Shown: positions 19,925 to 60,379 of the stretch, piece after piece | How the letters are laid out: the number at the start of each line of letters is the position of its first letter | Position numbering within the stretch: the stretch's first letter is position 1 | Virus record (IMG/VR): IMGVR_UViG_3300032285_001177 | Source: a virus | Reading direction: 5' to 3' (one strand) | DNA: 64,000 nt | The notes under the pieces: generated by a model | The model's input: the letters and a program-made list of their open reading frames with translations, nothing else | Databases searched by the model: none | What the model was told of the DNA's origin: nothing | Program-made: the position numbers and the translations under genes

Positions 19925-21610
19925 TTAAGCTTTCTTAAGGATCATCACGTTGTTAACGAACCAACCCATATGATAGCCTTGACGGCAGTAGTTGATCAGT
20001 TGGTCTTTAAGCTCAACGTCTTCAACTAAACCTTTTGCAAGGAACTTATCAAGCCAATATTGGCGAGGACGACAGTTAATATGTCCAACTCCACCTTGAC
20101 CAGGTTTTGCTGCAGTAAAGATCAATGTACCACCAGATTCGATAGTGTTGAATACACCATCAACGATCTTGTCATTATGCATTGGATCCATATGTTCTGC
20201 AACTTCAAACATGATAACGCAATCAGCTTGTCTTGTACCATCAAGTGTTAGCATATCTGCATAGGTGATAAGGTTCTTACCATCTACACGAGGATCAATA
20301 TCTAAACCTTCAGCGTTAACACCAATATCATCAAGCGAATAGACATACATGCCAGGACCACAACCAATGTCGAATACCTTTTTAGGGTTTACAACATCTT
20401 TGATCCATGATGCGATACGGTTTGCAAATGGTTTCTCTTCAGCTTCGATAGCTGGATAGTCGATCAGATCTGGATAGCGTGGATAATGCTTCTTAGCATA
20501 GTCCATGTTACTACGCCATGGATTCTCTTCGTACCAGCCTTGACCACCATGGATATTAAGTACAGCTTGGAAGTACTCTTCATACATACCAGCTACCTTC
20601 TCAAGCGAGAAGTTTCTTAATGCCCAATCACGGCAGTCTTGAGGACTAATCTTATCGATGTTCTTAAGTGCCCACACAAACTCTTCCATAGTACGGCAAC
20701 GGTAACCTGTAACACCATGGATATTGTTCTCTGTGAATGAACCCCAATCGGTAGTAATCGTTGGTGTACCAGAGAATAAGTTCTCGATCTGTACTCCACC
20801 GAACGGTTCAACATACATTGAAGCAACGAAAGATACTTTAGCTTTTGCCATTAGTTCTTTACGCATCTCTACGTCAGCATAACCAATGAACTCAACGTGT
20901 TTTGGGATCTCTTTATAACCACATGCTTCAAGGTTATTTTGACCAGCAACCTTAAGCTTCATACCTGCACGCTCAGTTGCCTGGATAGCGATATGGATAC
21001 CTTTACCTTCATAGACACGACCTAAGAATAAGCAGTAGTCTTCTTTTTCTTCAGGAGCAAACCTAAAGTCATCAGGATCAAAGTAGTTAGGGATAACAAC
21101 ATCATAGAAGTTTTGTTTACACATGCCAACCGCTTCAAGACCATAGTATGCATGCATGATAGCATAAGATTCAAAGATCTTAAACTTAGCCCAATGGCCA
21201 CCTGCATAACCAATACCAGGTTCAACGCAGATTAGATCTGGATGTGCATCACAGATTGGTCTTGTACCAGAACCCCAGAATGGAAGGATAAAGTCGTTCT
21301 TTTGTTTACGAAGACCTACTTCACGGATAGCGTTCTTATAGAACTCTTGATAGGCATGATCGCCTGTATTGAACTTGAAGAAGTTCTTACGCCAATCATA
21401 AGAACCATATGCGATCTCAAGGTCTTTGTTGGTTGTTACTGTAACATGTTCTGTACATGGTACATCTGATTCTTCATGACCGTAGTGGATAACTTCATGA
21501 CCACGTTCAGTCATCATCTTACCAAACTTCCACACCTTCTGTGTATAAGCGCAAGCTACATACTCTTTAGATGTTACCGTATGAGGCAGACCTAAAATAT
21601 GAAATCTCAT
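19925..21610 (-). CDS. GT4-family (GT-B) glycosyltransferase fused to a class I SAM-dependent methyltransferase
   Basis: N-terminal part: RGHEVIHYG, IPNYFD, LFLGRV..GKG, EPFGGVQIE.LFSGTP.ITTDWG...E (GT4 E-x7-E). C-terminal part: FDIGCGPG, GLDI, FEVAEH, GGTLIFTAA..GQGG.GH.N. Confidence 0.88.
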   Translation of the reverse strand: MRFHILGLPHTVTSKEYVACAYTQKVWKFGKMMTERGHEVIHYGHEESDVPCTEHVTVTTNKDLEIAYGSYDWRKNFFKFNTGDHAYQEFYKNAIREVGLRKQKNDFILPFWGSGTRPICDAHPDLICVEPGIGYAGGHWAKFKIFESYAIMHAYYGLEAVGMCKQNFYDVVIPNYFDPDDFRFAPEEKEDYCLFLGRVYEGKGIHIAIQATERAGMKLKVAGQNNLEACGYKEIPKHVEFIGYADVEMRKELMAKAKVSFVASMYVEPFGGVQIENLFSGTPTITTDWGSFTENNIHGVTGYRCRTMEEFVWALKNIDKISPQDCRDWALRNFSLEKVAGMYEEYFQAVLNIHGGQGWYEENPWRSNMDYAKKHYPRYPDLIDYPAIEAEEKPFANRIASWIKDVVNPKKVFDIGCGPGMYVYSLDDIGVNAEGLDIDPRVDGKNLITYADMLTLDGTRQADCVIMFEVAEHMDPMHNDKIVDGVFNTIESGGTLIFTAAKPGQGGVGHINCRPRQYWLDKFLAKGLVEDVELKDQLINYCRQGYHMGWFVNNVMILKKA

Positions 21611-23229
21611 TTTCTACTCCTAATATTATTCAAATAATTATTGATATCCCCATTTGGCATTGCATAACGATGTACAAGTTCTGGGTGCTTCATCTGTACT
21701 ATCGTGTAGATAGCTTCTTCAGTACCGATTGCTCCAGCTTCTAGCGACTTATCGATATATTCAAAGTACTTATCATTAAACTTCTGTATCTGTTCAGGCG
21801 TACCACCAAACAATGTTGCCCTACAGACGTATGATGGTTTTTCTCCAATCAACTCTGTCATCTTATTTATATCATACCCATGGATCTCAGAATCAGTCCA
21901 GTATGGATATGATGTTAGTAAGAAGTTATCCTTCGGCATCTTAAGGAAGTTGTATGTACTGATAGGTTCTCTAACACCAAAACTATTAGAGAATCCAGAA
22001 TCTATCCAATAGAAACGTTTGGATCCCCATGGACGGCCAACAGGATTCTTCTCAGCTACATAAGCCAATAACTCGTTCTTAATAAGAGTTAACGGTATGT
22101 AGTACTTAGATGATATGACTGAGTCCTTCATCCATGCAGATTGGTTTTTCCATTCATCTGTAGAGATAATATCTTGGATAGGTTTAAACCAACGATGGTT
22201 ATCAAGATAATCTGTTGCAAGAGGGAAGCATTGAAGTCTGTTATCAGATGTAGCGATACTTAGTTCTTTACGTCTCTTATATAGGTACTCGTGATGCTCT
22301 TCATCTGCAAAGATAACGAGCGGGTTACGTACAGATAACAGCTTATCTAAACCTTTGATGTAATGCTCAACGAAGTCCCTATCACCTCTATTAAGGTCGA
22401 TCGCCATAGTAACGAGTGTGATGTCACCGGGATAATCATACTTTGGATCAGAGTCCATATAACGATAATCAAAGTATGGTAAAGTTCTATTCTTTTTAAG
22501 TTCTTCGGGGAAGAAGTCATGTGGAACCTTGCTATCGTCTGGTCGTTTACCTTCCATAGCAGAGCACTTATCACCTAGGTGTCTAGAGTATTCACCGTTA
22601 AGGTATGCACCTCTAAAGCCTAACCCACTAAATAAGCGATCGATGTTCCATTCATTATGCCACTTCTCTACACGACCTAACATGATAAGGTCATCGCGGC
22701 GTCTTAGGTTTGGAGATCCAACCCAACAATGCCATGCTAGGTGACCATCAGTGATACGCCATGGTTTCTTATAGAAGAACATATCATCGATGAGTTCCTT
22801 CTCATATGAGTCGATACCTTGGAACTCAAACGTTCTCCATGATGTATCAACGCAACCGATATCACGATACTTCTCTAAGATTTGTTTTGATTGGTTTAGG
22901 TAACCTGGTCGGATAAGTTCCCAGTCATCTTCAAGGTAGAAGATGTATTCACTGTCACAGTAGGATACCATGAAATCCATGGCCCACCATTGTGAACGGT
23001 TACGGGGAAAACATACTACATCGCAGTAATCACCATACTCTTCAACAAGCTTCTCGAATACTCCATCGACAGCAGAGTCATCTACGATCACCATCTTGGT
23101 GATATAGTCTTGTGTGTCATGGAATGATTGAAGAGTCTTAGATAAGACGTCTAGTCTATTACAGGATAGTACGAAGGTTGTTGTGTCTGAATCTGGTTGA
23201 TCAACGGTGTGGATCTTCAATTGTGCCAT
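21607..23229 (-). CDS. Two-domain glycosyltransferase: GT-A (GT2-like) + HtrL/WlaTC-like
   Basis: N-terminal part: VLSCNR, VIVDDS, YIFYLEDDW (DxD-like). C-terminal part: TLVT..IDL.R, K..LL, FYWIDSG, ATLFGG, GTEE.IYT, which I recognise as HtrL-family patterns. Coupled to the next gene by ATGA overlap. Confidence 0.8.
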   Translation of the reverse strand: MAQLKIHTVDQPDSDTTTFVLSCNRLDVLSKTLQSFHDTQDYITKMVIVDDSAVDGVFEKLVEEYGDYCDVVCFPRNRSQWWAMDFMVSYCDSEYIFYLEDDWELIRPGYLNQSKQILEKYRDIGCVDTSWRTFEFQGIDSYEKELIDDMFFYKKPWRITDGHLAWHCWVGSPNLRRRDDLIMLGRVEKWHNEWNIDRLFSGLGFRGAYLNGEYSRHLGDKCSAMEGKRPDDSKVPHDFFPEELKKNRTLPYFDYRYMDSDPKYDYPGDITLVTMAIDLNRGDRDFVEHYIKGLDKLLSVRNPLVIFADEEHHEYLYKRRKELSIATSDNRLQCFPLATDYLDNHRWFKPIQDIISTDEWKNQSAWMKDSVISSKYYIPLTLIKNELLAYVAEKNPVGRPWGSKRFYWIDSGFSNSFGVREPISTYNFLKMPKDNFLLTSYPYWTDSEIHGYDINKMTELIGEKPSYVCRATLFGGTPEQIQKFNDKYFEYIDKSLEAGAIGTEEAIYTIVQMKHPELVHRYAMPNGDINNYLNNIRSRK

Positions 23230-23252
23230 AAATGTTCCTCAGTTATGATATA

Positions 23253-23281
23253 ATTATACTATAGAGAGTGTTTAATGTAAA
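23253..23281 (-). promoter_or_regulatory. Sigma70-type (early/middle) promoter for the glycosyltransferase operon
   Basis: Minus strand TTTACA-N17-TATAAT followed by GAGGA SD; same pattern as the gp55 and uvsY promoters. Confidence 0.72.
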
Positions 23282-23286
23282 ATTAT

Positions 23287-23472
23287 TTATGTCATCCAGT
23301 AAATTAGTTTATATCCAGAATACTCAACATCTATCTCAGGACAATGTACTTGAATATCACCTGGCAAAAATATTGCAGCAGGTGGGGTTGATAGTTGTCC
23401 TGGAGTTCCACCCCAACATTCTATCATCGTCTCATCATCTACTTTAATTAATTTATATCCAATTATTTGCAT
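23287..23472 (-). CDS. Small hypothetical protein
   Basis: 61 aa, AGGAG SD, co-oriented and fills the gap. Confidence 0.6.
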   Translation of the reverse strand: MQIIGYKLIKVDDETMIECWGGTPGQLSTPPAAIFLPGDIQVHCPEIDVEYSGYKLIYWMT

Positions 23473-23481
23473 CGTATCTCC

Positions 23482-25517
<2,036 letters not shown>

Positions 25518-25521
25518 TTAT

Positions 25522-26226
25522 TTATACGTATGCCCATTGAGATTCCATGTTTCTTGATGATGTACTATTTGTCCATGAATAAGCAACTGTTGCTGTACCG
25601 GCTGTGCCTTGGCTATTATCATAGTAGTATGTTTGATCTAAATTTGGTGTTGAAAATGGGCCTGCTGTAGGATTTGCTGGTGTACCAGTTGCTATTAGCG
25701 CAGTTGGAGCTGTCGTACCAAATGAAAGATGGAAGAAGTTAAACCCACCTGCAGACATCGCTAGCGAGTTTGTTCTGCTAGTACCGGTAGCTATCGTTGT
25801 TGTACTTGACGATACATACGATAGTGTGGTCCTACCATCTAAAGTATATACCAGAAATTCTGTAGTACCATTTGCAGAAGCTCCTGATGTTACCACGCTA
25901 ACAGTTACACCAGTCGTACCTGTTGTTACGTTTGCAAAGATCGCAGCATTACCACCTGATGTAGTACTACTAGGATTAGAGTATGCTATGGTTGCAGAGA
26001 CACCATTAATAGTTGCGGATGTAAATGATCTTGGAGTAATCGATGTAACAGGAGTCCTAACAAAAATTATTACCCATCTAGTAGATGTTGCTGTTCCTAT
26101 GTTTACACTTGCAGTCTTAGTCGCAGCAGTGCTTGCTGCCATCTGGAAAGGTCCTTGCGATGTGAGCGTGGCTATTGTGTTACTGTTACTCGAAAACGAG
26201 CCTATCAATGCTTGCATCATACTCAT
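25522..26226 (-). CDS. Thr/Ser-rich beta protein, putative fibre-tip adhesin
   Basis: Start reassigned to ATG 26226 (MSMMQALIG), which overlaps the stop of the 1876 aa fibre (TAATG). Confidence 0.65.
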   Translation of the reverse strand: MSMMQALIGSFSSNSNTIATLTSQGPFQMAASTAATKTASVNIGTATSTRWVIIFVRTPVTSITPRSFTSATINGVSATIAYSNPSSTTSGGNAAIFANVTTGTTGVTVSVVTSGASANGTTEFLVYTLDGRTTLSYVSSSTTTIATGTSRTNSLAMSAGGFNFFHLSFGTTAPTALIATGTPANPTAGPFSTPNLDQTYYYDNSQGTAGTATVAYSWTNSTSSRNMESQWAYV

Positions 26227-29200
26227 TATGTTAGACCTGCACCTGAACAATGGAATGTTGGAGTTCCACCACCGACTACACATAAGTATGTCGCCATACC
26301 ATACTGAGCTAGTGTCCTGTTACCAGTCGATGCTGTACCAGCTAGTCTGAATGTTACTGATGTACCTGCAGTAATCGTTTGTGCTGACGCAGAGTTGTTA
26401 ACGATGGTGACCATATCACCAGCATTGAATACTGAGGCATTGATCGTCACACCGCCTGTAGAGATGTAGATAGTCTTACCTGCATCAGAAGCCGCGGCAA
26501 TGTATGCTCCACCCTGCGTATTGATCGGTGCGGCACGCACATCTCCTTTAGAATCTGAGATAATACCAGATGCATTAATTACACCAGTAGCACCAGTCGC
26601 GCCTGTACCCACAGTAATATTTGATGTGATAATCATGCCTGACGCATTGATTGAACCTGTTGCACCGGCCGAAGCACCACCTACGGCTACGGCAGCATTT
26701 AATACTACAACACCAGATGCACCAATGGTTGGGGTAGTATTGATATTGATACCAGTGCCAGATATATTACCTGAAGCATTGATAGAACCTGTTGCACCTG
26801 TAGCACCAGTTCCTACTGCTAAGAGTACTGGATTAGTTCCTCCAACACCTGTAGCACCGCTTGCCCCTTGTACACCTGTAGCACCATTAATGCCTGATGC
26901 ACCACTAGCACCAGATGCGCCACTAATACCAGTAGCTCCACTTGCTCCTGAGGCTCCACTTGCGCCTGATGCACCATTAACTGCAGCTGGTCCAGTTGAT
27001 CCTGTTGCACCATTGATAGCTACACCAGTTGCTCCTGATGCACCGTTGATTGCTGCTGGTCCTGTTGCACCTATCGGTCCTGTTGAACCAGTTGCGCCTG
27101 ATGCTAGTAGTACACCAGCTAAGTATGCGGTATTAAAGTAAGCAGTAGTTGCAGACATCGAACCAGTAGATCCAATATATCCTGTTGCACCTGTAGTACC
27201 TACTGCAAGGTTAGGTGATTGGATTTGACCTGATGTATTGATCGTACCAGTTGCACCAGTAGCACCAGTACCGATAGCAAGAGCTTGTGCACCCATACCT
27301 TGTGATGAGTTAATACTATTGAAAGCTGATATTGTACCCGTAGCACCTACTGATACACCACCTGCAGCAATTGCACCATTAACTAATACTGCTCCAGATG
27401 CACCGAGACCTGCATTTCCAATGCTAATACCACCAGCTAACATGTTACCAAGAGCAGTGATAGAACCCGATGCACTAACAGTTCCAGTTGCTCCAGGACT
27501 TGATGTTCCTGCACTAATACCACCTGTTATAGCTAAAGTATTTCCATCAATTCTACCTAATGCATAGATTGATCCAGTTGCACCTGAGGCTCCTATATTA
27601 CCTATCTGTAGAGATTGGGCAAACATTGCTAATCCCGCTTTAATCTCTCCGGACGCTGTGATAGATCCAGTCGCACCTGTCGCACCAGTACCTACAGTTA
27701 ATGTACCTGTACCTATATTAGCATTTGCAATAATAGATCCAGTTGAACCTAAGATGCCAGTGGCTCCAAGTCCAATTTGTAAGTTTTGAGTAACAGTGTT
27801 TACAGCATTAACCGCAGTTGCACCAAGCGTTGGAGTATTTACGGATAGTGAAGCAGTAATTGCACCAGTTGCACCTGTCGCTCCAGTACCAATTGCTAAG
27901 TTAGGAGCAGTGATGGTATTAGATGCCATAACTGTACCAGTCGCACCTGTAGCACCAGTACCAACAGTTAATGTACCAGATGCTATATTAGTTGTAGCAC
28001 TGATATTACCTGAAGTGTTGATAGAACCGGTTGCACCTGTTGCACCGGTACCAACTTCGATTGTTTGTACAGCGATGTTAACAACGTTAGCAGCGGTCGC
28101 ACCTAATGTTGGAGCATTAACAGATAGTGAAGCATTGATAACTCCGGTTGCGCCTGTCGCGCCTGTACCTATCGCTAAGTTTGGAGCAGATACTGTATTA
28201 GTTGTAATGATTGTACCAGTTGAACCAACTGTTGCACCACCAATAGCTAAGGTACTAGATGCTAATGCTGTAGCAGCTATTTGTCCAGAAGCGTTAATAG
28301 AACCTGTAGCTCCTGTGGCACCAGTACCAATTTGAATTGTTTGAGCTGTAAGGTTTACGGTGTTAGCTGCAGTTGCACCCAATGTAGGAGCGTTAACAGA
28401 TAATGAAGCATTGATAACACCTGTAGCACCAGTTGCTCCTGTACCGATAGCTAAGTTAGGAGCTGAGATAGTATTTGATGTGATAACAGTACCTGTAGCA
28501 CCAGTTGCACCAGTTCCTACTGTTATTGTACCGTGAGAAACGTTATTTGCAAATACACCTACTAGGGCATTAATGGATCCTGTAGCACCTGTTGCACCTG
28601 TACCAACTTCAATCGTTTGTGCTGCAAGGTTTACGGTGTTAACACCAGTCGCTCCATGTGTAGGAGCATTAACAGCTACTGAAGCATTGATTGTACCTGT
28701 AGCTCCTGTGGCACCTGTGCCAACTTCAATCGTTTGTATAGCAAGGTTAGTAGCAGTTATTGTACCGCTAGCACCGGTTGCACCAGTACTAAATGATGCA
28801 GCATTAATAGATCCAGTTGCAATGATAGAGCCTGTTGCTCCAGCAGTGCCTGCACCAACAACTGCATTCTTAAGAACACCCACTGAAGTTAAGCTTGAGT
28901 TAACAACGTTAGTTCCTAATGTAGTTGAACTAAGTACTGCTACGTTATTGATATAGTATGTTAATGATGCGCCACCAAGATTCCAGTTATCCGAAGCGTT
29001 CCAATAACCAGTGTTTGTACCAGCGGTTGTGGCTGTCGCAGCCCAACTTAATGTCTTGTCTGTTGCACCTTTAAGTGTAACACCACCACCAGCTGCTGTA
29101 ACATCTGTTACCCCGCCGATTGTTAATGTAACACCCGCAGTTGGTCCACCAGTACCAGTTAACGCTGCACTTAATGTGATTTGAGTTGCGCTATCAACAG

Positions 29201-31856
29201 ATTGAACTGTTGTACCACCAGCAACAGTGATTGTACCAGCACCAGTTAATGCAGTAAGTGCAGATCCTGGAATAATACCAGTTACGCTTGACATGTTTGT
29301 GATGATACCAGATCCAGCAGTTACCGTACCTGTAGGGCTTACTGCTGTTACAGAACCTAACTCGATGTTCTTATCATCAACAGTTAGAGTGTTTGAGTTT
29401 ACTGTAGTTGTAAGACCGTTAACAGTTAAGTTACCAGTGATCGTTGTATTACCACCGACGTTTAGGTCACCTGAAGCATTGATAGATCCTGTAGCACCAG
29501 TTGCACCTGTACCAACTCTAAATGATTGTATTACGCCGTCAGTGCCAACTAATGTATTAGTAGTAACACCTGTTGAACCAACTGATAATGCACTAAATGC
29601 ATTTATGGTCGCAGCTGTTGCACCGATAGATGCTGCGGTTACAGAACCTGATGTAACGATTGAACCTGTGGCACCAGTTGCGCCAGTACCAACTTGAATT
29701 GTTTGAGCTGTAAGGTTTACTGTATTAACACCTGTTGCACCGTGTGTAGGAGCATTAACAGCTGTTGATGCATTGATTGTTCCTGTAGCACCTGTAGCAC
29801 CAGTACCGACCGTAAGTGTACCAAACGCGGCGTTATTTGTGATTACACCAGTAATAGCACTAATAGAACCTGTTGCTCCCGTAGCACCTGTGCCGAGGAT
29901 AATATTAGGTGAAGTGATCCATCCGCCAAACGCAGCACTAGTTGCACCAATAGATTGCGCTGTTAGAGGACCAGAAGCATTGATAGAACCGGTTGCACCT
30001 GTTGCACCTGTACCTACTTCAATAGTTTGTAATGCTGAATTAGTTGCAACTAATGTATTAGTAGTAACACCGGTTGAACCAACAGTCAATGCACTGAATG
30101 TATTGATTGTTGCTGCAGTTGCACCAATGGATGCAGCTGTAATTACACCAGATGCATTGATTGTGCCTGTCGCGCCTGTTGCTCCCGTACCAACTTGTAA
30201 TGTTTGCACACTTCCATTAGTAGTAACTAATGTATTTGTTGTAACACCTGTTGCGCCAATTGTTGCTGAAGCTAACGTGTTTGTTGTTACACCAGTTGTT
30301 CCAATTGTTGCTGCAGATAATGTATTAGTAGTAACACCAGTTGCACCAACTGTTGCAGCAGATAATGTATTAGTAGTAACACCAGTTGCACCAACTGTTG
30401 CAGCAGATAATGTATTTGTTGTGATGCCTGTTGCACCAGCGGTACCGATATTTAAAGTATTAGTTGTGATACCAGATGCACCGATTGTTTGCGCGCTAAA
30501 CGTATTAATAGTTGCTGCAGTTGCACCAATAGATGCAGCTGTAACTGATGTTGTAGTTGTTATAGGACCAATAGTACTAATCGCACCAGTAGAACCAGTT
30601 GCACCTAATGTAGTACCTACATTTAATGCATTGGGGATATTAATGTTACCGTTTGCATCTATTCCAAGTCTTATAGCTATAGGAGCCGCACCAGTAGCAC
30701 CGTATCTATCTCTTATTGCAAATTGTCGCGCGCCTGTTGCACCTGTTGCATACATATCAAAATATGCACCGTTTGTAGTAAGTGTTGAATCCCATTCTTG
30801 TAGTTCAACAGATGGGTTTCCACCCACACGGGCGACTTTAACTGAAGCAGAACCGTCTATTAAGTTAAAACTTCTGTTTGCTGGTAAACCAGTTGTAGTT
30901 CCTTGTACCCAAACGTTTGCGATATTTACGTCAGAGATCTTATTGCCAGCCAGTATATGACCATCAGTTGAATATACTCTATTGTATAATCCAACGTTTA
31001 GGTCACCAGAAGCATTGATAGATCCAGTAGCACCAGTTGCTCCAGTGCCTACTCTTAATCCACCATTGATCCATGTTGAATTATCTGTGCCAATCGTCAT
31101 CGCATCGTATGTATTGCCATTGATTACGAAGTGGATTGGTTTTAATGCATATGTACCAATAGCAAGATCAGATGACTGAGATGCAACGTATACCGTGTTA
31201 GGTTGGATAAATGCGCCGCTAGCACCAGTTGCGCCTGATGCACCAGTATTGAACAGCGATGAGTTCATACCAAACTCACCGTAGTAGGTTGAGTTGGTTG
31301 CTTGGTCGTTTGATACTACGAAGTTAGTAGAGGCACTTTGACCCGCAAAAGTATTTTGTAGGAGTAGTTGGTTATAGCTATCTACAGATGATGACCATGA
31401 ACCCATGATGTTGCCATCTGTATAGTTCAATGTACCGTATGAGTATGCTCCTTGTGCAGATGATGCACCTATAGAACCATTAGCTATATAGTATGTACCT
31501 GAAAAAGCGCCAGAAGCATTAACAGAACCTGTTGCACCAACACCTGTTGCACCGACAGCAAGAGTTCCAGTAAATGATGTATTTGTTGTATTAAGGTTTG
31601 AAGATATAGCACCTGTAGCACCTGAAGCGCCTGTCGCACCAGCTCCAACATGCAAACTACCTACAAGTTGTACAGATCCGGTTGCACCAGTAGAACCAAC
31701 TAGTGGTCCTACTTGGAAGGTGTAGAAACCTCCCGAAGTTGGGACTTGACCGGTTGCTCCATAGAAGCCTGTCGCTCCTGAAGCCCCTTGAGGACCTGTT
31801 GTACCAATTGCACCAGCAAAACCACTTGATAATATATTTCTGATATCAGTTGTCAT
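26226..31856 (-). CDS. Long repeat fibre protein (1876 aa)
   Basis: About 20 copies (hand count) of [17 protein letters not shown]; also GNLTVNG.TTTVNS.TLTVDDKNIELG fibre motif, a short collagen segment and a C-terminal cap domain. Confidence 0.85.
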   Translation of the reverse strand: MTTDIRNILSSGFAGAIGTTGPQGASGATGFYGATGQVPTSGGFYTFQVGPLVGSTGATGSVQLVGSLHVGAGATGASGATGAISSNLNTTNTSFTGTLAVGATGVGATGSVNASGAFSGTYYIANGSIGASSAQGAYSYGTLNYTDGNIMGSWSSSVDSYNQLLLQNTFAGQSASTNFVVSNDQATNSTYYGEFGMNSSLFNTGASGATGASGAFIQPNTVYVASQSSDLAIGTYALKPIHFVINGNTYDAMTIGTDNSTWINGGLRVGTGATGATGSINASGDLNVGLYNRVYSTDGHILAGNKISDVNIANVWVQGTTTGLPANRSFNLIDGSASVKVARVGGNPSVELQEWDSTLTTNGAYFDMYATGATGARQFAIRDRYGATGAAPIAIRLGIDANGNINIPNALNVGTTLGATGSTGAISTIGPITTTTSVTAASIGATAATINTFSAQTIGASGITTNTLNIGTAGATGITTNTLSAATVGATGVTTNTLSAATVGATGVTTNTLSAATIGTTGVTTNTLASATIGATGVTTNTLVTTNGSVQTLQVGTGATGATGTINASGVITAASIGATAATINTFSALTVGSTGVTTNTLVATNSALQTIEVGTGATGATGSINASGPLTAQSIGATSAAFGGWITSPNIILGTGATGATGSISAITGVITNNAAFGTLTVGTGATGATGTINASTAVNAPTHGATGVNTVNLTAQTIQVGTGATGATGSIVTSGSVTAASIGATAATINAFSALSVGSTGVTTNTLVGTDGVIQSFRVGTGATGATGSINASGDLNVGGNTTITGNLTVNGLTTTVNSNTLTVDDKNIELGSVTAVSPTGTVTAGSGIITNMSSVTGIIPGSALTALTGAGTITVAGGTTVQSVDSATQITLSAALTGTGGPTAGVTLTIGGVTDVTAAGGGVTLKGATDKTLSWAATATTAGTNTGYWNASDNWNLGGASLTYYINNVAVLSSTTLGTNVVNSSLTSVGVLKNAVVGAGTAGATGSIIATGSINAASFSTGATGASGTITATNLAIQTIEVGTGATGATGTINASVAVNAPTHGATGVNTVNLAAQTIEVGTGATGATGSINALVGVFANNVSHGTITVGTGATGATGTVITSNTISAPNLAIGTGATGATGVINASLSVNAPTLGATAANTVNLTAQTIQIGTGATGATGSINASGQIAATALASSTLAIGGATVGSTGTIITTNTVSAPNLAIGTGATGATGVINASLSVNAPTLGATAANVVNIAVQTIEVGTGATGATGSINTSGNISATTNIASGTLTVGTGATGATGTVMASNTITAPNLAIGTGATGATGAITASLSVNTPTLGATAVNAVNTVTQNLQIGLGATGILGSTGSIIANANIGTGTLTVGTGATGATGSITASGEIKAGLAMFAQSLQIGNIGASGATGSIYALGRIDGNTLAITGGISAGTSSPGATGTVSASGSITALGNMLAGGISIGNAGLGASGAVLVNGAIAAGGVSVGATGTISAFNSINSSQGMGAQALAIGTGATGATGTINTSGQIQSPNLAVGTTGATGYIGSTGSMSATTAYFNTAYLAGVLLASGATGSTGPIGATGPAAINGASGATGVAINGATGSTGPAAVNGASGASGASGASGATGISGASGASGASGINGATGVQGASGATGVGGTNPVLLAVGTGATGATGSINASGNISGTGININTTPTIGASGVVVLNAAVAVGGASAGATGSINASGMIITSNITVGTGATGATGVINASGIISDSKGDVRAAPINTQGGAYIAAASDAGKTIYISTGGVTINASVFNAGDMVTIVNNSASAQTITAGTSVTFRLAGTASTGNRTLAQYGMATYLCVVGGGTPTFHCSGAGLT
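30313..30416. repeat. Perfect 45-bp tandem repeat (about 2.3 copies)
   Basis: gcagataatgtattagtagtaacaccagttgcaccaactgttgca repeated exactly; encodes TTNTLSAATVGATGV. Confidence 0.9.
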
Positions 31857-44003: not shown

Positions 44004-44004
44004 A

Positions 44005-48804: not shown

Positions 48805-51800
48805 TTAGTATCCGTAGGTGATCTTATTTAAGTCGTCCCTTGAAGTAAAGTTTCCGTTAATAGTAACAACTGTTAATACTGCACCGTCCCAAGCAACTAC
48901 ATAACCATTTGCTGGGTTTTGCGGACCAATACCGGCAGAATCAAACGTGATGTTTGTATTATTTGCAGCAAGTGTAGCAAAGTCAATTGTATCATACCAG
49001 TAATCGCTTGGATAGATGTATGCTTGACCATTTGGTATAGAATTAACATCAGCATGATCTCGTGAACTAAACAAGTATGTGCCAGAAGGATCATATATTG
49101 TTGTACCACCTATACGACTCTTAACACCTTCTCTTTGCCATGTAATATCAGTACCTGAAACTGTTGGAGTTACCTTTAATGATACTACAGAACCGTCTGT
49201 AGTTGCTGTAACTGACATAACGTTATGACCAGTTGCCCCAGTTCTTAATGTTGCATACTCTGTCATGTATACACCGTCTGCATTTTGTGTTAGGATAACT
49301 TCTGTTGCTTGTACGTTAGTTCCTTCTACACCTTGAACGATATACTTAACTGTACCTTGATCATTAGATTGGAACCTATCAACTGTTTGCTGAGATGTAC
49401 CGCTCAATCCTGTTGTACCAGTTATGAAGCCATAACCTTTTACACCTAAGAAGCCTGTAGCACCGTCAAGACCAACTGTACCAGTTGAACCTGAAGCTCC
49501 TTGAGTACCTGTTGCACCTTGGTAACCTGTAGCACCTTGATCGCCGTCTACACCAGATGCACCGTCAATACCTGCGGCACCACTAGCACCTTGATAACCA
49601 TCTGCACCGCTAGCACCTTGGTAACCATCATTTTCTGCTGGACCAAAACCTTCGATAACAATGCTTGCACCTGGAGGTATAGCACCAAGAGTTACAGGAT
49701 AGTCTGTAAAATTAAGCATTGAGTATTCATTATTATTCTCAATGTAATTATAAACGGTGTATGTATGACCGCCATAAGTTACGGTCATTCCTGGAGCAAT
49801 ACCAGATATAGGACCATTAACCCTTAAGAAACTGCCCATTAATGTTGGGTATTCTAACCAAGCATTGTCTAGACCAGTATAACCACCAAATGATGAGACT
49901 GTAACATTGATAGAATTATATGCTGCACCGTTACCACCAGTGTAACCACGAGTACCGCTTATACCGCTTGCGCCAAATATACCAGTAGCACCTGATGCAC
50001 CAATCCAACCTACTGCACCATCAAGGTTAACTATCCAACCACTAACTCCTGTTGCATTTCCGTATGACGCAGTTACTTCTACATCAATTCCACTACCACC
50101 ACCAATGACGTTAGTAATATCAGCAACCATATAGTTGTTGATATCTTTAGCTATGATAACTGATTGACCAGTTGAGTAATTATAAGTTGTAGCACCAGTA
50201 TCTGGATCTGCTAAGAATGGTATAGTTATAGGAGTACCTATAGCATATACTGAGAAGTTTCCATCAGCTGTTGCTTTGAATTGTAGACCGCTATAACCTG
50301 TAGCACCTGTTATACCAGAAGCACCATCGATACCTGCGGCACCGCTTGCTCCATCTATACCAGCCGCTCCTATATAACCGGTTTCGCCTTGAGCACCAGA
50401 AGCACCGTCAATACCAGCAGCTCCACTAGCACCATCGATACCAGAAGCACCTGAAGCACCATCTATACCTTGAGCGCCTGATGCACCATCAACACCTACT
50501 GGACCAGTAGATCCATTAATGCCTGAAGCACCTGATGCACCAGCCCAAGCTGTCCATGCCCAATATTCTGGATAACTATCTGGGTAAAGTCCTGTATTTT
50601 CTACTAAACATCTATGTGAATCAGCAGGCATAGTAACTACTATATCACCTGGATAGTATGTTGTACCTACATCCCATAAGCCGCGTGGATTACCAGTAGT
50701 GAGTTGGTCTGCATCGTAACCAGCGTTACCATCAGGACCTTGTACACCATCTGCACCAGAAGCACCTTGAATACCTGTGTTTGTTGGTGCACCATTACCT
50801 AAGTATGTGTATCCACTTGGAACATCATACTGAGGAGTAGTTATTAATTCAAATACAGCACCATCGAGTGTGCTTACTGCTGGATAACTATGTGGTTGAG
50901 CTAATAAGAATGGTGAACCGTTAGTATTAGTTGCGGGATCTCCGCCTTTTGACCATGCTCCACCGTTAACTCTTGCCCAGAAGTATCCAGTATTATAATT
51001 AACTGCAACTTCTACTAAATCACCAACACCCCAACTAATACCTAATGCATCTGTTTGTGCACCGTTTGTGTAAACAGCACCATCTTGTTGGAATCCTTGT
51101 GATTGATTATCATACATTCCTAACGCATTATTGACATCAATGCCAGATGTTCCTAAGCCAATGCGATTAGTAGTAGCAGGTATATCAGCATCTAACCTTA
51201 CACCAAACATACTTAAACCAGAGTTGGCGTATGTTGCCATTTCAGCAGTACCTATTGCTGATTCAATATAACCAACTGTACCACTTAATATTGTATTTGT
51301 GCCGTTACTGCCGCTTGAAATTGTTTGATGGGCTCCGTAATGACCATAACTTGTATCAAATTGAACTGCTGAGGATGAACCATCACCACCTTGTGCACCA
51401 GTAGCACCAGTGTAACCTGTAGCGCCATCGATACCTTGATAACCTTGATCGCCTTCATCACCTTGTGAACCTTGAGAACCTGTAGCGCCTTGTACACCGT
51501 CAGCGCCAGAAGCACCATCTATACCTTGAGCACCACTTGCTCCATCGATGCCTGCAGCACCAGTTGCACCTTGTACACCATCTGCACCAGAAGCGCCTTG
51601 ATAACCTTGTTCGCCATCAGCACCTGTAGCACCTTGAATACCTGTTGCGCCTTGATAACCTTGTGCGCCTGTAGCACCTGTAGCGCCATCTTGACCAGTT
51701 ACACCTGAGGCACCAACTTGTCCTTCTGCACCGTCAAGGTTAATTTCCCATGAACTTGCAGAACCTGTACCTACGTGATCGATCGGGGTGAATGCTAAGA

Positions 51801-52467
51801 TCTTTGTATTAGCATCCCATGAAGTAACAGTAGCGTGGATATGTTTACCACCACCATCTGCTAAAAGGATTGTTTGACCGTATGAATAGTTTAGATAATC
51901 GTCAACAACTACTACACCTGTAGCACCTGTTGTTAAATTGAGTGTTGTCGTAGATGTTGTATGGTATCTATGACCATGAACACCTGTAGCACCAGTTTCA
52001 CCTGTTACACCAGAAGCACCATCAATACCTGCAGCTCCAGAAGCACCGTCGATACCAGCAACGCCTGTTGCTCCAGTTGCACCATCTGTACCTTGATCTC
52101 CAGTAGTACCTATCTCACCAGTTGCACCTCGAGCACCAGTTGCACCAGTTATACCTTGATAACCATCTGCACCACTTGCACCTTGATAACCTTGTGCGCC
52201 TGTAGCACCTTGGTAACCTTCTACGCCAGTAGTACCTTGATAACCATCAATACCGGTGGCACCTGAGGCTCCATCAATACCAGCAACACCTGTTGCTCCA
52301 GTTGCACCATCTGTACCTACTACACCAGTTGCACCATAAGGTGATTCACCTGGGCCAGAGTTACCAACCCATTCACCAGCTGTGTTAATTACTTCGAATC
52401 CAGAAGCTCCAACGGCAAGGCCGTTCTTAACTAGAAACTTCTGGTTATTGGTTGGTTTGTCAGCCAC
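48805..52467 (-). CDS. Large collagen-like fibre protein (1220 aa)
   Basis: GTG start with GGAG SD; acidic Gly-X-Y runs (GID/GAD/GYQ), SPRY-like and CBM5/12-like inserts, KYIVQ...TEYA domain. Confidence 0.88.
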
Positions 52468-52492
52468 GTTAATCTCCGATTATTTTGTTTTA

Positions 52493-54775
52493 TTATGCTA
52501 GTAATGCTGAGCGTACATAGTCTATAACAGTGTTAGTATTTGCTGGTGTTACTTTAATGTAAACATAACCTGCATTATACTCTGCACTTATTGTCATTAG
52601 ACTCATACTTGAATACAATGTTGCGTATTCTGTAACAGAAGCATCTGTACCATTATGAGTAACGATAACTTCTGTTGAGTGTACTTCACCAGCTTCTGTA
52701 GCTTGGATGATATACTTAGCTGTTCTATATGTAGTAGCATTATAGCTATCAAGTGTTTGGTTTGGTGTTGTAGTTGGGAATGATCCATCATTGATGAATA
52801 AACCAGCACCGCTTGCACCTACAGGACCAGTTGAACCGGTAGCACCAGTTAAACCAGTTGAACCTGAAGCACCTTGGTAACCCGTAGCACCTGTAGCACC
52901 AGTGTAACCTGTTGCACCTGAAGCACCGCTTGCACCATCAATACCTGTAGCACCTGAGGCACCATCTAAACCAGTTGAACCTGATGCACCTTGGAAGCCT
53001 GTCGCACCTGTTGCTCCTGTATAACCTGTAGCACCTGAGGCACCTTGGATACCTGATGCACCAGTGATACCGCTTGCACCTTGGATACCTTGAGCACCGT
53101 CTAAGTTAACTTCCCATGCTGAATGTTCACCAGAACCATTTGATGTTGTTTTATTAAATACTAATTGGTTACCAGTTAGACTTACAACTGTACCAAGTTG
53201 CATGTTGCTTGCATCCCAAGCAACTACGATCGATTGACCTACTGTGTAGTCATAATTTGTTTTATCAAGTGTTAATGTGATTTGACCTGTGCCACCGATA
53301 GTCATTACACCTGTTGCAGTAGCAGCATAAGTGTCACCATCAGAACCAGTTGCACCAGTTAAACCTGTTGCACCATCGATACCTGTAGCACCTGATGCGC
53401 CATCAATACCTGTCGCGCCACTAGCACCGTCTATACCTGTAGCACCTGATGCACCATCGATACCAGTTGCACCTGAGGCACCATCGATACCCGTTGCACC
53501 ACTTGCGCCGTCTATACCAGTCGCACCTGAGGCACCATCGATACCTGTGGCACCAGTCGCACCTGAGGCACCATCGATACCCGATGCACCTTGTAAACCT
53601 GTTGCACCTATAATACCAGTTGCACCTGAAGCACCTTGTAAGCCTGTTGAACCACTAGCACCTTGTGAACCCGTAGCACCTGATGCACCTGTTGGACCAG
53701 TCGCACCATCATAACCTATAACACCCGAAGCACCATCAGCACCAGTTGCACCGGATGCTCCTCGAACACCTGTGGCACCTGAAGCACCTTGTAAACCGGT
53801 TGCACCTGATGCACCATCAATACCTGTGGCACCTGAAGCACCGTCAATACCAGTGGCACCTGACGCGCCTTGTAAACCTGTAGCGCCGCTTGCGCCGTCT
53901 AAACCTGTTGAACCAGAGGCACCTTGGAAACCAGTGGCGCCTGAAGCACCTTGGAAACCTGTTGCACCTGAGGCACCTTGATAACCAGTAGCACCAGTAT
54001 AACCTGTTGCTCCTTGTACACCAACTGCGCCAGATAAGTTAACATTGAAGTTGCTTGATACAACATCTTGTGCATTAGCAACGTCTGTGATTACTAAATT
54101 TAATTCGCCTGTACTAGCATTATATGCATATACAGTACCATGAATATGATTACCTGGATTATTAAGATCGGCTACGATTACGGTTTGTTGCGGACTATAA
54201 TCTAAGTTTATATCAACGTATAGTAGATCTAGAGTATCTGTTACAGAGTAGTCAGATAAGTTTAATGAACCAGAATATGTGGTGTTGTATTTGTCACCGT
54301 CAAGACCTGCAGTACCTGTAGCACCAGTGTAACCTGTTGCACCATCGATACCAGTTGCACCTGAGGCACCATCAATACCCGTTGCACCTGAAGCACCATC
54401 TACACCTGTCGCACCAGAAGCACCGGTATGACCTGTAGCACCTGAAGCACCTTGATAACCAGTGGCACCTGAAGCGCCATCTAAACCTGTTGAACCAGAG
54501 GCACCTTGGAAACCTGTCGCACCGCTTGCACCCTGTGGGCCTGTAGCGCCTGAGGCACCATCAACGCCGCTTGCTCCGCTAATACCTGAAGCACCATCAA
54601 TACCTGTAGCACCAGAAGCACCATCGACACCCGTTGCACCTGAAGCACCTGTCGCTCCAGCTGGAAGTTGGGCCCCTACCCAATTACCATTCTCGTCAAT
54701 GACATCTATCGGTCCTGACGCTCCGCCAACGGCTAGGCCGTTCTTTACTATAAATTTTGAATTATTCGTTGCCAC
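52493..54775 (-). CDS. Collagen-like fibre protein (760 aa)
   Basis: GTG start with AGGAG SD; (GIDGASGAT)n runs, two NL(D/S)GA.G domains, C-terminal TAKYIIQ...TEYA domain. Confidence 0.88.
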
Positions 54776-54812
54776 AGTGTGCTCTCCTTGATGGGTATTC
54801 TTGCTCTTTAGT

Positions 54813-54820
54813 TATTTATA
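54813..54820 (-). promoter_or_regulatory. T4 late promoter for the collagen gene trio
   Basis: Exact intergenic TATAAATA. Confidence 0.85.
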
Positions 54821-54825
54821 ATTTA

Positions 54826-56262
54826 TTATACTGACAAATCAGTCCTAATATACTTTAATGTTGTTATTCCGCCTGATGGTGTAAACCTTAGTTCACATGT
54901 TCCTGTACCGTCCCAGGCTATGTTACTTAGTAATAATATAGGTGATCTTGTTGGTGTCACTGTAGCTTGCCAAATTCCTGTAGATACCTCAGTAAACTTA
55001 GAGGTAGTTTGTACTGTATATGCACTTGAGTTTAACCTAACTTCAAGGCCTATAATGATCGATTGTAACGCTTGTATTACAGTGTTACTTGTTGTGTATA
55101 CTCGAAGGTTTGACCCATTCCAATATGATACTCCACCAGTATTTATACTTGGTGATGAATAGTTATTTACTAATGGTGAGAAGTATGTTGCGAACGTGCC
55201 AAAATCTGGACCTAATACACCATACTCGTTTAAGAATACGTTTGCTGCGTCATGTAGTAACCTAAGTTCACTTACTTGTACATCAGAACCACGAGTAACT
55301 TGCATCTCAAACTTACTACTTCTTACTGTTGCAGTATCGATGACTTCAAGTAGCTGTTCGTCTGTTGTTCCGTCTGTTGTGAATACTGTTTCTTGTATTA
55401 CACCTGCACCTGATGCACCAACAGGACCTAAGTTACCTGTAGCACCAGTTAAACCTGTTGAACCTGATGCACCTCTAATACCAGTTGCACCATCTCGTCC
55501 TACATAACCTGAAGCACCGCCAACACCGCTTGCACCCGCTGGACCTGTTGGACCAACTTCACCGGTTGCACCTGTAAATCCAATACCGCTTGCACCTTGT
55601 GTTCCTGTAGCTCCACTAGCACCTTGAATACCTGTTGCACCTGTTAGTCCTGCACCAGTTGCACCAGTTAAACCAGTAGCACCAGTAGCACCATCACTAC
55701 CAACATATCCTGAAGCACCACCTACTCCAGATGCACCTTGTATACCTTGAGATCCTGTTGCACCATCTCGTCCTATGTATCCGCTTGCACCAGCAACACC
55801 AGATGCACCAACACCTGTAGCACCCTGTGGACCAGTGATAGAGAACCAACTAGCAGGATCAGTATTTGGAGCACCAACAGTATTGCCTGAGGATGGAGAA
55901 GACCATACGTATACAACTGAGTTATATGTAACATAATCACCAGCATTATATGTAGCACCTGATGACCATGGTCCTTGATTACTAAATCCTGAACCAGTCG
56001 CACCAGACGCGCCTTGCACACCTGTTGCGCCGTGACTACCTGTACCTACACCTGAAGCACCTTGAATACCTTGTGGGCCGGTTGAACCTGTTGCACCCGC
56101 AGTACCTACACCAGTAGCACCACTTGCACCTATCGGTCCAGTTGCACCATCATTACCAACTGGACCGGTTGATCCAGTGGCTCCATTACCGGTACCACCA
56201 CCTCCTGATAGGCCTTGTATACCTACCGCGGTGACTTCTGCGTAAACATCTCCTAGTGCCAT
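54826..56262 (-). CDS. Collagen-like protein with CBM5/12-like insert
   Basis: Gly-X-Y runs, [17 protein letters not shown] motif, C-terminal SSKFEMQ...NEYG domain related to the TEYA domains. Confidence 0.8.
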
Positions 56263-56271
56263 ATTCTCTCT

Positions 56272-56619: not shown

Positions 56620-56620
56620 G

Positions 56621-57691: not shown

Positions 57692-57699
57692 ATTTTACC

Positions 57700-58653: not shown

Positions 58654-58670
58654 TTTATATTTCCTTTAAA

Positions 58671-59498
58671 TTATGCTACATTTCCTAATCTAGTACCAGT
58701 TGCAACCCATGTTACGTTAACATTACCATTCAAGTACAGTCCTGATGTACCACCGGCTCCAGGACTTGTACCAGCTCCAGCTGCACCACCGCCACCTTGC
58801 CCACCACCAGAACCGCCAGTTGGAGAGTTAGTAGCTGTACCGCCACCTCCGCCCGCTATTGTAGTACCATTGGCACCAGCTCCACCATTATATGATGCTC
58901 CAGTTCCACCTGCACCGCCTGCACCACCAACATTACCAGCACCACCGCCACCACCAGAACCAGCTTCTGTATATACTGTGTAGTTACCTTTAGAGCCGGT
59001 AGAGAATGATCCATAACCACCACCGCCACCACCACCGCCACCCGCGATGATCGATCCAGTATTATTAATAGTTATTGGGAATCCTGCAGTTACAGCTGTA
59101 CCACCAACACCACCGGTACCGCCTGCTCCGCCATAAGCCGCACCAACACCACCGGTACCACCCGCTCCTTGTATTGTTCCACTATTATTTAGTAATATCT
59201 GTGATCCAGTTACAAATGACCCAACTGTTAAAGATGGTAATGTTGGATCAGTTGAATTAATAGTTATACCTGAAGCGATGTTCACCTTTAATCTCAATGG
59301 AGAAGTTGGTGAACCTGCTAAAGTATATAAGTTAATATTACTTGCATTAGCTGTGATGTTTATTACCTTATGAACTATCTTCCATGTACCATTATCGTTA
59401 AGCCATGTTTCTGATGGTTCAAACCATGAAGAACCATTATAGACCCATAGATCTTGTACTAAACTCCACGTACCTGCATTATTAACGTATAATGACAT
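58671..59498 (-). CDS. gp38-like polyglycine adhesin
   Basis: L.N.G.I.G.GG.GG, INN.G.I.AGGGGGGGG, C-terminal V.W..TG.RLG.V, resembling T2/S16-type gp38; YVN..G.W repeats at the N-terminus. Confidence 0.75.
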   Translation of the reverse strand: MSLYVNNAGTWSLVQDLWVYNGSSWFEPSETWLNDNGTWKIVHKVINITANASNINLYTLAGSPTSPLRLKVNIASGITINSTDPTLPSLTVGSFVTGSQILLNNSGTIQGAGGTGGVGAAYGGAGGTGGVGGTAVTAGFPITINNTGSIIAGGGGGGGGGYGSFSTGSKGNYTVYTEAGSGGGGGAGNVGGAGGAGGTGASYNGGAGANGTTIAGGGGGTATNSPTGGSGGGQGGGGAAGAGTSPGAGGTSGLYLNGNVNVTWVATGTRLGNVA

Positions 59499-59500
59499 TA

Positions 59501-60379
59501 TTAAATCCTATACCAAATATCGCCAGATACGCCAGTTGCTCCAGGAGCATTAGTGGAAATATACTTTGTTCCTTGTGAATTTTGTCCAACACCAGCTACT
59601 GGTGCCGTTTGAACGTATTCTTGTGTTGCTATAGTTCCATTTGCATTTGGTGCAGTAAGAGTCTTAGTTGTACCTGATCCAATGTTAGATACTTGGAAGT
59701 TTAGAACTTTTGTTGTATCAACATCATCGGTGATAGCAAACTTATTATCTCTAAATGTTTGTTGACCTGTCCATAAATTATTTCCAGTTTGTGTACCTAA
59801 ACCTAAACTTAATGAACCACCCAATGATACAGAGTTACCGTCGATGCTGATAGAACTATTTGCTAACTTAGTGTTAGCGATTGAACCTGAAAGCATTGCG
59901 TTTGTAACTGTACCAGTATCGCCAGTAGTTACAACTGTACCTGACACATCAGGCAACGCAATAGTTCTGTCTGCAGTAGGATCATTAACTGTTAATACAG
60001 TCTCATACGTATTATCTGTTGGACCTTCAAACGTAACGTTTTGTGATGGACCTACATAAACTCCTGCATTAACTAAGTTAGCTGTGATAACATTAGCAGA
60101 GAAGTTGCCAGATGAACGGGTAACTACACTGTTACCAGATTGATCTGAGCTAGATGTGTTTAATCCATCTAATAAGTCAGCATCTAATCCTGAACCAGAA
60201 CCATCTACATTCTTAACTTTTGCTAGTACACCTGCATCAGAATAGTCTGTTGTTAATACACGTGTTTGTATATCAGCGTTTAAGTTATAGAAGTTAGTGT
60301 CAATCTCTGCATTTGTAAGTGCAGCGTTTTTAACTCCTGTTGCGCCAGTGGCACCTAATCTATATAGTATACTTGCCAT
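59501..60379 (-). CDS. Short fibre / adhesin carrier protein
   Basis: LTNAEIDTNF.NLN N-terminus, DGSGSGLDADLLDG, FEG.T...ET.L.V.DPTADRTI.LPD, C-terminal GDIWY. Confidence 0.8.
   Translation of the reverse strand: MASILYRLGATGATGVKNAALTNAEIDTNFYNLNADIQTRVLTTDYSDAGVLAKVKNVDGSGSGLDADLLDGLNTSSSDQSGNSVVTRSSGNFSANVITANLVNAGVYVGPSQNVTFEGPTDNTYETVLTVNDPTADRTIALPDVSGTVVTTGDTGTVTNAMLSGSIANTKLANSSISIDGNSVSLGGSLSLGLGTQTGNNLWTGQQTFRDNKFAITDDVDTTKVLNFQVSNIGSGTTKTLTAPNANGTIATQEYVQTAPVAGVGQNSQGTKYISTNAPGATGVSGDIWYRI

Follow-up and report, generated by a model that had tools for sequence, protein, structure and literature searches.

Virion glycosylation by a phage's own enzymes is established in the mycobacteriophages, where glycans sit on the C-terminal tails of capsid and tail-tube subunits, and where phage-encoded cytoplasmic glycosyltransferases (GTs) are proposed to O-glycosylate the phage's own structural proteins (Freeman et al. 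2023, Cell Host Microbe, as cited in PMC12619734). Among collagen-like proteins, the BclA filament of the Bacillus anthracis exosporium bears O-glycans, with threonine in the Y position of its repeats (Daubenspeck et al. 2004, as cited in PMC11923368), and its terminal sugar, anthrose, is described as 2-O-methylated (PMC6222408). Here, we consider two adjoining genes for GT and methyltransferase domains, together with a recurrent Gly-Ala-Thr/Ser-Gly motif (GA[ST]G) in fibre and other virion proteins, found in a 64,000-nucleotide stretch of viral DNA (IMG/VR record IMGVR_UViG_3300032285_001177; hereafter ‘the window’) that profile searches identify as the late/structural region of a T4-like cyanophage. 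On balance, we favour the view that the two soluble enzymes are a phage-encoded system for O-glycosylation of the phage's own fibre and peripheral virion proteins, a reading drawn from sequence that we hold to be somewhat more probable than its competitors taken together.

The locus departs from the mycobacteriophage systems in that glycans have been demonstrated there, whereas here we have genes alone, and in that the candidate targets are collagen-like fibres; the mycobacteriophage type of acceptor is all but unmarked in the window, with a single motif in gp23 and none in either gp19 or the sheath. The collagen-like proteins of the window share with BclA the arrangement of G-X-Y repeats with Thr or Ser at Y. 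BclA is made mainly of G-P-T triplets, however, whereas those of the window are G-A-T and G-A-S, with 4% proline; it is, moreover, a spore protein, and ours are phage fibres that lie beside unrelated enzyme fusions. Within the viruses, A064R (GT-GT-methyltransferase) and A061L of PBCV-1 provide a precedent for a soluble viral multidomain enzyme, and for a class I S-adenosylmethionine (SAM)-dependent methyltransferase that caps the terminal sugar of the virus's own glycan; that glycan is, however, N-linked to the major capsid protein of a eukaryotic virus, and the order of domains is different (PMC9614988). In the window, moreover, the four domains are split over two genes. Mimivirus L230, a collagen lysyl hydroxylase/glucosyltransferase, is likewise a viral enzyme that acts on a viral collagen-like protein, but it does so on hydroxylysine, and the collagens of the window are nearly free of lysine (PMC9614988).

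A mechanistic reason why a proline-poor, threonine-rich collagen might need a GT is suggested by the cuticle collagen of Riftia pachyptila, in which glycosylated Thr at Y stabilises the helix in place of hydroxyproline (Mann et al. 1996, as cited in PMC11923368); that collagen is an extracellular one, from an animal, and its glycosylation is of the Golgi type; the parallel is purely functional. Closest in genomic setting are the GTs of the host-recognition clusters of marine T4-like myophages, which also lie amid tail-fibre genes in a hypervariable region, but which have been read as modifiers of lipopolysaccharide (LPS) or DNA and have not been tied to fibre composition (pelagimyophage, PMC7029224; S-SCSM2R, PMC12801897). 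Here, the co-occurrence of GT and motif suggests that the fibres themselves are the target. No description of fibre glycosylation in T4-like cyanophages was found in the literature searched, in keeping with the claim of novelty made in a sequence-only reading of the window that preceded this analysis.

The two enzyme genes overlap by 4 nucleotides and lie between the fibre block and gp13, as that reading had placed them; the three GT domains and one methyltransferase domain that it assigned to them all score above the Pfam gathering cut-offs, which we took as the threshold for membership. In the GT2-HtrL gene, Glycos_transf_2 (PF00535) matches at amino acids 20-144 (28.1 bits; cut-off 23.3) and HtrL_YibB (PF09612) at 269-519 (29.9 bits; cut-off 24.1). 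The acidic motifs of the GT2 part, DDS (50-52) and EDD (100-102), are invariant in five homologues that are 71-73% identical. A structure model of the HtrL part (amino acids 270-520), with block-mean pLDDT (predicted local distance difference test) values mostly of 63-94 and two blocks of 37-40, retrieved GT-A enzymes of families GT6 and GT8 in Foldseek (E ~1e-6, target template-modelling score ~0.47), which suggests a GT-A-like fold and a putative GT; the GT2 half of the model was too poor in quality to be used. The second gene combines a GT-B enzyme (amino acids 1-377), with a match to Glycos_transf_1 (PF00534) at 182-315 (61.5 bits; cut-off 26.4), and a methyltransferase domain at ~395-561, matched by PF13489 at 408-499 (35.3 bits; cut-off 27), whose SAM motif I reads DIGCGPG. 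Structures in the PDB related to the GT-B domain include 7fg9 (E 9e-23) and 5zer, and the nearest solved relatives, which fix the fold and not the acceptor, are cyanobacterial glucosylsucrose synthase and biopterin glucosyltransferases. As no transmembrane segment is present in either protein (top 19-residue Kyte-Doolittle means of 0.97 and 0.73), we call both enzymes soluble. The GT-B family is a large one, with more than 6400 metagenomic cluster representatives, both fused and unfused.

The hundreds of motifs in about a dozen proteins that had been noticed over ~37 kb upstream of the enzymes are indeed there: the window holds 430 GA[ST]G, with at least three in each of 13 proteins and one in gp23. 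As many as 424 fall in the fibre block (13,352 amino acids) and six in the left block (6,328 amino acids), where five belong to a small open reading frame (ORF) of the head module and one to gp23. Among the proteins of the window, there are none in gp46, gp47, gp55, UvsW, UvsY, gp13-gp20 or the GTs, so that the reported absence from gp47, gp55, UvsW, UvsY and the GTs, each of which could be identified, is upheld. The broader proposition, of a motif spread across the virion proteins, stands for the fibres and peripheral proteins and fails for gp18, gp19, gp20 and gp13-15, all with none, and for gp23 with its single copy.

Whereas 320 of the 430 motifs are in collagen register, 110 are not, many of the latter being GATGATG turns within the repeat of the 1876-amino-acid fibre; of the 283 G-x-y-G units that lie outside collagen runs, 96 have Ala-Thr in the middle, far more than any other pair. 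In the collagen triplets themselves (n = 823), GAT (166) and GAS (156) together make up 39%, and GST accounts for a further 58. The X position is Ala in 45% and Pro in just 4%; at Y, Thr accounts for 34% and Ser for 21% (56% for the two together), and the collagens contain little Lys, Arg or Glu. Most motifs stem from the amplification of internal repeats; all the same, the 430 are encoded by 121 distinct 12-mers, which rules out an artefact of DNA repetition and marks the motif as a feature of the protein rather than of a single DNA repeat.

The motif had also been reported in gp23 and five other non-collagen proteins, and in these five it stands well clear of chance, with 3-13 copies in each against a shuffle expectation of 0.05-0.4 (each p ~0.0002), a 10-100-fold excess. 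Permuted tetrapeptides number 0-3 in each of these proteins and are not enriched; the motif is thus specific in its order, and shuffles and permutations together rule out an artefact of composition. Comparison with homologues is informative here. The four GATG sites of the 830-amino-acid structural protein coincide with indels or variable segments of the alignment, and an orthologue at 52% identity, from a clade without the GT-B gene, has none. The 968-amino-acid conserved structural protein is ~42% identical to its counterparts in S-PM2 and S-RSM4, which have 0 motifs and 1 motif respectively, in a BLAST match that spans residues 1-710 only, the motifs of the window's protein being C-terminal to this. 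For the small head-module ORF, in which all five motifs are predicted by a structure model to lie in loops, homologues on the contigs of relatives have 3-5 motifs, and every contig that could be checked carries the GT-B gene; the homologue from a clade without that gene has no motif, with deletions exactly at the motif positions. This ORF occupies the place of the T4 prohead-core genes and has no PHROG match; its model gave weak jelly-roll-like matches only, and we assign no fold.

We next set the GT genes against motif content in 13 Kyanoviridae isolates, counting DNA sites that code for GATG. S-CAM7 has 216 such sites and ACG-2014f has 43, with 1-9 in each of the remaining eleven, and only these two have PF00534 above cut-off. 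Homologues of the GT-B enzyme are confined, among isolates, to three groups: S-CAM7 (75% identity), ACG-2014f (72%) and S-CBWM1 (31%), the last of which is not T4-like. The GT of S-CAM7 has two collagen ORFs, of 62 and 65 motifs, directly upstream; that of ACG-2014f, at 17.3 kb, has GATGATG sites a short way upstream, at 13.6-15.5 kb; and in S-CBWM1 the GT directly follows a 329-amino-acid collagen tail fibre with 13 motifs. Of 14 records that lack the GT-B gene, 13 also lack the GATGATG 20-mer. It is not the case that any GT tracks the motif, since S-SRM01 is free of the motif in spite of its two GT2 genes. No homologue of GT2-HtrL was found among phage isolates. Collagen-type glycine periodicity is limited, among the isolates, to S-CAM7, ACG-2014f and S-CAM9; S-CAM9 (KU686206.1, ~31.5-32.0 kb) has a collagen-like gene with GQK, GEK and GPT triplets, and a sub-threshold GT-B-like match.

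Metagenomic relatives, anchored on gp13 and compared by gp13 identity, GT-B presence and number of GATG sites, divide in the same manner. Where gp13 is 79-90% identical, a GT-B gene is always present somewhere on the contig, at 89-91% identity, and there are 259 (in a 99%-complete genome of 160 kb), 257 and 93 GATG sites; where gp13 is 52-69% identical, there is no GT-B gene and there are 0-4 sites, on contigs of 63-68 kb that include the fibre block. The genome-wide count of the motif in virion and non-virion proteins that the sequence-only reading called for was run on the 160-kb relative (G039), where the motif is confined to fibre-like ORFs and a small head-module ORF, and absent from the orthologues of capsid, tail-tube and sheath proteins.

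In G039, the enzymes belong to an island comprising GT2-HtrL, a TylF-type O-methyltransferase, a homing endonuclease, the GT-B gene, three RCC1 propellers, DUF4376 and two more methyltransferases; TylF and FkbM, which here accompany the GTs, are sugar-O-methylating types. The island (G039:C1, L240/L241, ~112.7-127.9 kb) sits between the fibres and gp13, its methyltransferases are of the TylF, Methyltransf_11 and FkbM families, and the homing endonuclease, of the NUMOD3 type, falls between the TylF gene and the GT-B gene. In another relative, on contig L009 (1277-8237), the same island has SpeD, a fatty-acid desaturase and parts of a TRAP transporter (TctA, DctP-like), the latter seemingly unusual cargo for a cyanophage. 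With such genes in or beside it, the GT operon cannot be said always to abut the fibres. A close relative, contig L010, has a 623-amino-acid collagen-like ORF with 66 GA[ST]G between its gp14 and gp15 homologues, an unusual site for a fibre gene.

The association extends to phages of other types. A group of 34-35-kb phages that are not T4-like, having their own terminase and portal (and, in one member, terminal repeats), has a GT-B orthologue at 71% identity, with a collagen fibre of 35-41 motifs ~5 kb away, and in two essentially complete genomes of the group this orthologue is the sole GT1- or GT2-family gene; the enzyme is 70-90% identical across the T4-like cyanophages and this group. A complete 73-kb phage has a 39% homologue of GT-B 2-3 kb from two collagen ORFs, and in another complete phage, of 80 kb, a double-GT2 gene lies one gene away from a collagen ORF. 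Another T4-like group has a cassette of GT, methyltransferase, DUF5672, a GT9-like gene and a 2-oxoglutarate-Fe(II) (2OG-Fe(II)) oxygenase between UvsX-like and UvsW-like genes, methyltransferases thus accompanying the GTs both there and in the clade of the window; on the longest contig with this cassette (250 kb), the GT is ~80 kb from the largest GATGATG cluster. Overall, 11 of 15 GT-B contigs have GATGATG, and the other four are two fragments of 14-17% and two contigs with GA[ST]G-rich ORFs. What had been envisaged was co-occurrence of the motif with the two-gene operon; this holds for the GT-B enzyme (in isolates, in close as against distant relatives, and in non-T4-like phages) and not for the operon as such, because GT2-HtrL is absent from isolates and the 34-35-kb phages carry GT-B alone. 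The converse state, enrichment in the motif without the GTs, which had been named in advance as telling against the idea, is partly realised outside the cyanophages, where many phages without this enzyme have GATGATG-type repeats, and was not seen in the T4-like cyanophage records examined. The narrower claim that survives is that phages with GT-B have GA[ST]G-rich fibre proteins as well.

Synthesising these findings, we propose a model that starts from what is directly established, namely the domains of the two enzymes, the statistics of the motif, and its association with GT-B, both phyletic and physical, and from which we infer the acceptor, the order of the enzymes, the sugars and the benefit. 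The GT-B enzyme, as the only GT component common to all motif-rich lineages, would transfer the first sugar onto Thr/Ser of Gly-Ala-Thr/Ser-Gly, at sites located mostly in the Y position of proline-poor collagen triplets, with others in variable segments and in short GATG(ATG) turns. The GT2 and HtrL-like GT-A domains may then extend the glycan, with the fused methyltransferase O-methylating a sugar, and the whole process would take place in the cytoplasm of the infected cell, ahead of fibre assembly. A likely benefit would be a collagen helix stabilised without hydroxyproline or charge pairs, as with the glycosylated Thr of Riftia; the glycans might also serve in shielding or adhesion. The candidate targets would be limited to the fibres, structural proteins at the periphery and the small ORF of the head module, and would not extend to the whole virion; ‘sequon’ and ‘methyl-capped oligosaccharide’, terms of the sequence-only reading, should be taken in the same conditional sense. 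We also venture, as less likely than not, a bolder version, in which one highly conserved soluble GT-B recognises GA[ST]G as a portable sequon for O-glycosylation, with glycosylated Thr/Ser replacing hydroxyproline as stabiliser in a proline-free viral collagen and with the same tag placed in variable surface segments of virion proteins that are unrelated to one another.

Expression of the operon would be compatible with such a scheme. Its promoter region combines a late-like box, CATAAATA, at 23291-23284 (a 7/8 match to the late box), with a sigma-70-like TTTACA-N17-TATAAT at 23281-23253 (11/12 matches), followed by a GAGGA ribosome-binding site, and the same late-like and sigma-70-like pair lies upstream of GT2-HtrL on five contigs of relatives (L007, L010, L012, L014 and L048). 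Perfect late boxes, TATAAATA, number 13 in the window, all on the coding strand, and the scan found none before the GT operon; purely late expression is thus unsupported, and with a two-part promoter the enzymes could be present both before and during fibre synthesis. A 61-codon ORF (23287-23472, minus strand) takes up most of the gap between the GT operon and a glycine-rich gene, and overlaps the late-like box.

Several observations weigh against the glycosylation of fibres. The case rests on association, and the GT-B-positive records are not all phylogenetically independent; fibres and GTs also share a mobile host-recognition region, and in some close relatives the GTs are set apart from the fibres, or from gp13, by 6-10 kb of metabolic, propeller and methyltransferase genes. 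Viral contigs, including some in giant-virus bins, commonly contain GATGATG, and of 20 GATGATG contigs only 2 encode a homologue of this GT; no GT1- or GT2-family gene is present in two complete small phages that have a few such repeats. Outside the cyanophages, then, the motif does not need a phage GT, which makes it first of all an element of fibre building. One of the motif-bearing proteins, the head-module ORF, lies at the prohead-core position. As to the enzymes, the nearest solved relatives of GT-B act on small molecules, similar GT-B folds glycosylate DNA in RB69 and DLP3 (PMC13326640), and the HtrL and GT9-like partners recall enzymes of the LPS core.

One alternative, less likely but to be taken seriously, is that during infection the enzymes alter surface glycans of the host (the LPS core, the O-chain or some other polysaccharide of the envelope), for instance to block superinfection or the sticking of progeny to debris, with fibre type linked to the GTs as the reader of the altered glycan. 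Linkage of this sort exists between tailspike and O-antigen conversion genes in seroconverting phages, and HtrL_YibB is named for an E. coli gene in the LPS-core cluster. The strong sigma-70-like promoter, which suggests expression ahead of the late genes, would fit such a role, as would the GT9 heptosyltransferase-like gene in the cassette of other lineages and the ordinary metabolic genes in the gp13-side island of relatives; it is also the interpretation given to comparable GTs of marine T4-like phages (PMC7029224, PMC12801897). It leaves unexplained, however, why non-collagen virion proteins should have isolated GATG in their variable segments only in the presence of the GT, and why one tetrapeptide is common to fibres of unrelated architecture. 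Nor does the type of host surface obviously separate motif-rich from motif-free phages, since Synechococcus WH 7803/Syn7803 is the named host for S-CAM7 and ACG-2014f and also for the motif-free S-PM2 and S-RIM8. The enzymes lack the membrane segments and the partners of Gtr-type systems (GtrA/GtrB/GtrC), although cytoplasmic action of the LPS-core type would be compatible with this, and the essentially complete 34-kb phage keeps this GT alone, ~5 kb from a collagen fibre gene.

That enzyme and motif have no link as enzyme and substrate strikes us as distinctly improbable: GA[ST]G would be structural in proline-poor collagen and beta-turn fibres, and the GT would simply co-travel in a mobile hypervariable module, its true acceptor being a small molecule (pterin or sucrose) or some other phage or host protein. 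The breadth of the motif among viral contigs, the complete small phages without such GTs, the origin of most motifs in repeat amplification and the small-molecule specificity of the cyanobacterial glucosyltransferases all speak for this; set against them, co-occurrence persists with the genes ~80 kb apart and in phages with different virion modules, the GATGATG 20-mer is nearly absent from records without the gene, and the excess of the motif in non-repeat proteins is specific in its order. A role in the glycosylation of hydroxylated bases of phage DNA, as in T4, RB69 and DLP3, and hence in the evasion of restriction, is highly improbable. Whilst GT-Bs with the same generic fold matches (7fg9, 5zfk, BshA) do arabinosylate or glucosylate DNA in T4-like phages (PMC13326640), and DNA glycosylation is listed among possible roles of cyanophage GTs in the S-SCSM2R paper (PMC12801897), the base-hydroxylating ThyA family (PF00303, thymidylate-synthase/dCMP-hydroxymethylase) is absent from four of five GT-B genomes (S-CAM7, ACG-2014f, G006 and G011) and is ~60 kb from the GT in the fifth, G039; the GT genes lie among fibre genes and not those of nucleotide metabolism, and modification of DNA offers no reason for a link to a protein motif.

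Fibre-region GTs of marine T4-like phages are routinely filed as modifiers of host LPS or DNA. Should fibre glycosylation prove correct, it would account for the folding of a proline-free collagen, and would extend phage virion glycosylation beyond the capsids and tail tubes of mycobacteriophages to very abundant viruses of the ocean and of fresh water; host range, adsorption, particle stability and grazing or decay at sea would then hinge on a post-translational layer that gene-based prediction misses. If GA[ST]G were in addition a true sequon, fibre glycosylation would be widespread in aquatic phages, and many ‘LPS-related’ auxiliary GT genes would have to be re-assigned. The cultured phages S-CAM7, ACG-2014f and S-CBWM1, with S-PM2 as a negative, make fibre glycosylation directly testable.

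Features of the window discussed in the text, in order of position (GA[ST]G counts are per protein)
Feature	Position	Strand	Match or basis
165-aa (amino acid) head-module ORF between the gp20 and gp21 genes, 5 motifs	9589-10086	-	predicted beta-sandwich
gp14	neighbour of gp13 on the non-enzyme side		PF11649
gp13	18850-19863		phrog_211
GT-B + class I SAM methyltransferase fusion	19925-21610	-	Pfam, PDB matches
GT2 + HtrL_YibB-like putative GT-A fusion	21607-23229	-	Pfam, alignment, structure model
GT-operon promoter region	23253-23291	-	late-like and sigma-70-like boxes, GAGGA ribosome-binding site
Collagen-like protein, 20 GA[ST]G	24678-25511	-	PF01391
1876-aa fibre, ~30-40-aa repeat, 90 GA[ST]G mostly outside long collagen runs	26226-31856	-	tail-fibre PHROGs
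830-aa virion structural protein, 4 isolated GATG in variable/indel segments	32411-34903	-	phrog_1645
1010-aa non-collagen protein, 13 scattered GA[ST]G (0.39 expected)	34944-37976	-	
Short collagen-like fibre protein, 8 motifs	38370-39119	-	
Conserved virion structural protein (968 aa), 4 GATG in C-terminal part	39119-42025	-	phrog_5838
Collagen-like fibre protein, 13 motifs	42029-42994	-	
1584-aa collagen-like fibre, 103 motifs	44005-48759	-	
1220-aa collagen-like fibre, 50 motifs	48805-52467	-	
760-aa collagen-like fibre, 87 motifs	52493-54775	-	
478-aa collagen-like tail fibre, 29 motifs	54826-56262	-	phrog_5073
Fibre-like protein, 3 motifs: N-terminal GATGATG, C-terminal GATG	59501-60379	-	

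Every gene of the window is on the minus strand. Profile matches were obtained for gp46, gp47, gp55, UvsW, UvsY, a tail-tube-like protein, gp23, gp22, gp21 and gp20, and further for gp19, gp18, gp17, gp15, gp14 and gp13; beyond gp13 come the two enzyme genes, and then the ~37 kb of fibre and virion structural genes. No close isolate relative was found, the top megablast match covering 2% of the query at 74% identity (first 20 kb); the GT protein of the window is on record for a contig of 169,980 bp.

A 2OG-Fe(II) oxygenase of prolyl-hydroxylase-type Pfam families adjoins the GT-B gene, or is one gene off, in S-CAM7 (KU686213.1, 18.8-21.3 kb), in ACG-2014f and in the UvsX-UvsW cassette (L031, 6873-11137); the collagens hold little Pro or Lys that could act as its substrate, and none turned up among the ORFs of the window that were profile-scanned. 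Three glycine-rich proteins, encoded on the minus strand at 23482-24681, 43029-44003 and 58671-59498, are interspersed among the collagens as a second, distinct low-complexity class: they are 23-34% Gly, with GGxG and GAGG runs, have weak matches to tail-fibre and tail-fibre-assembly PHROGs, and contain 0 GA[ST]G.

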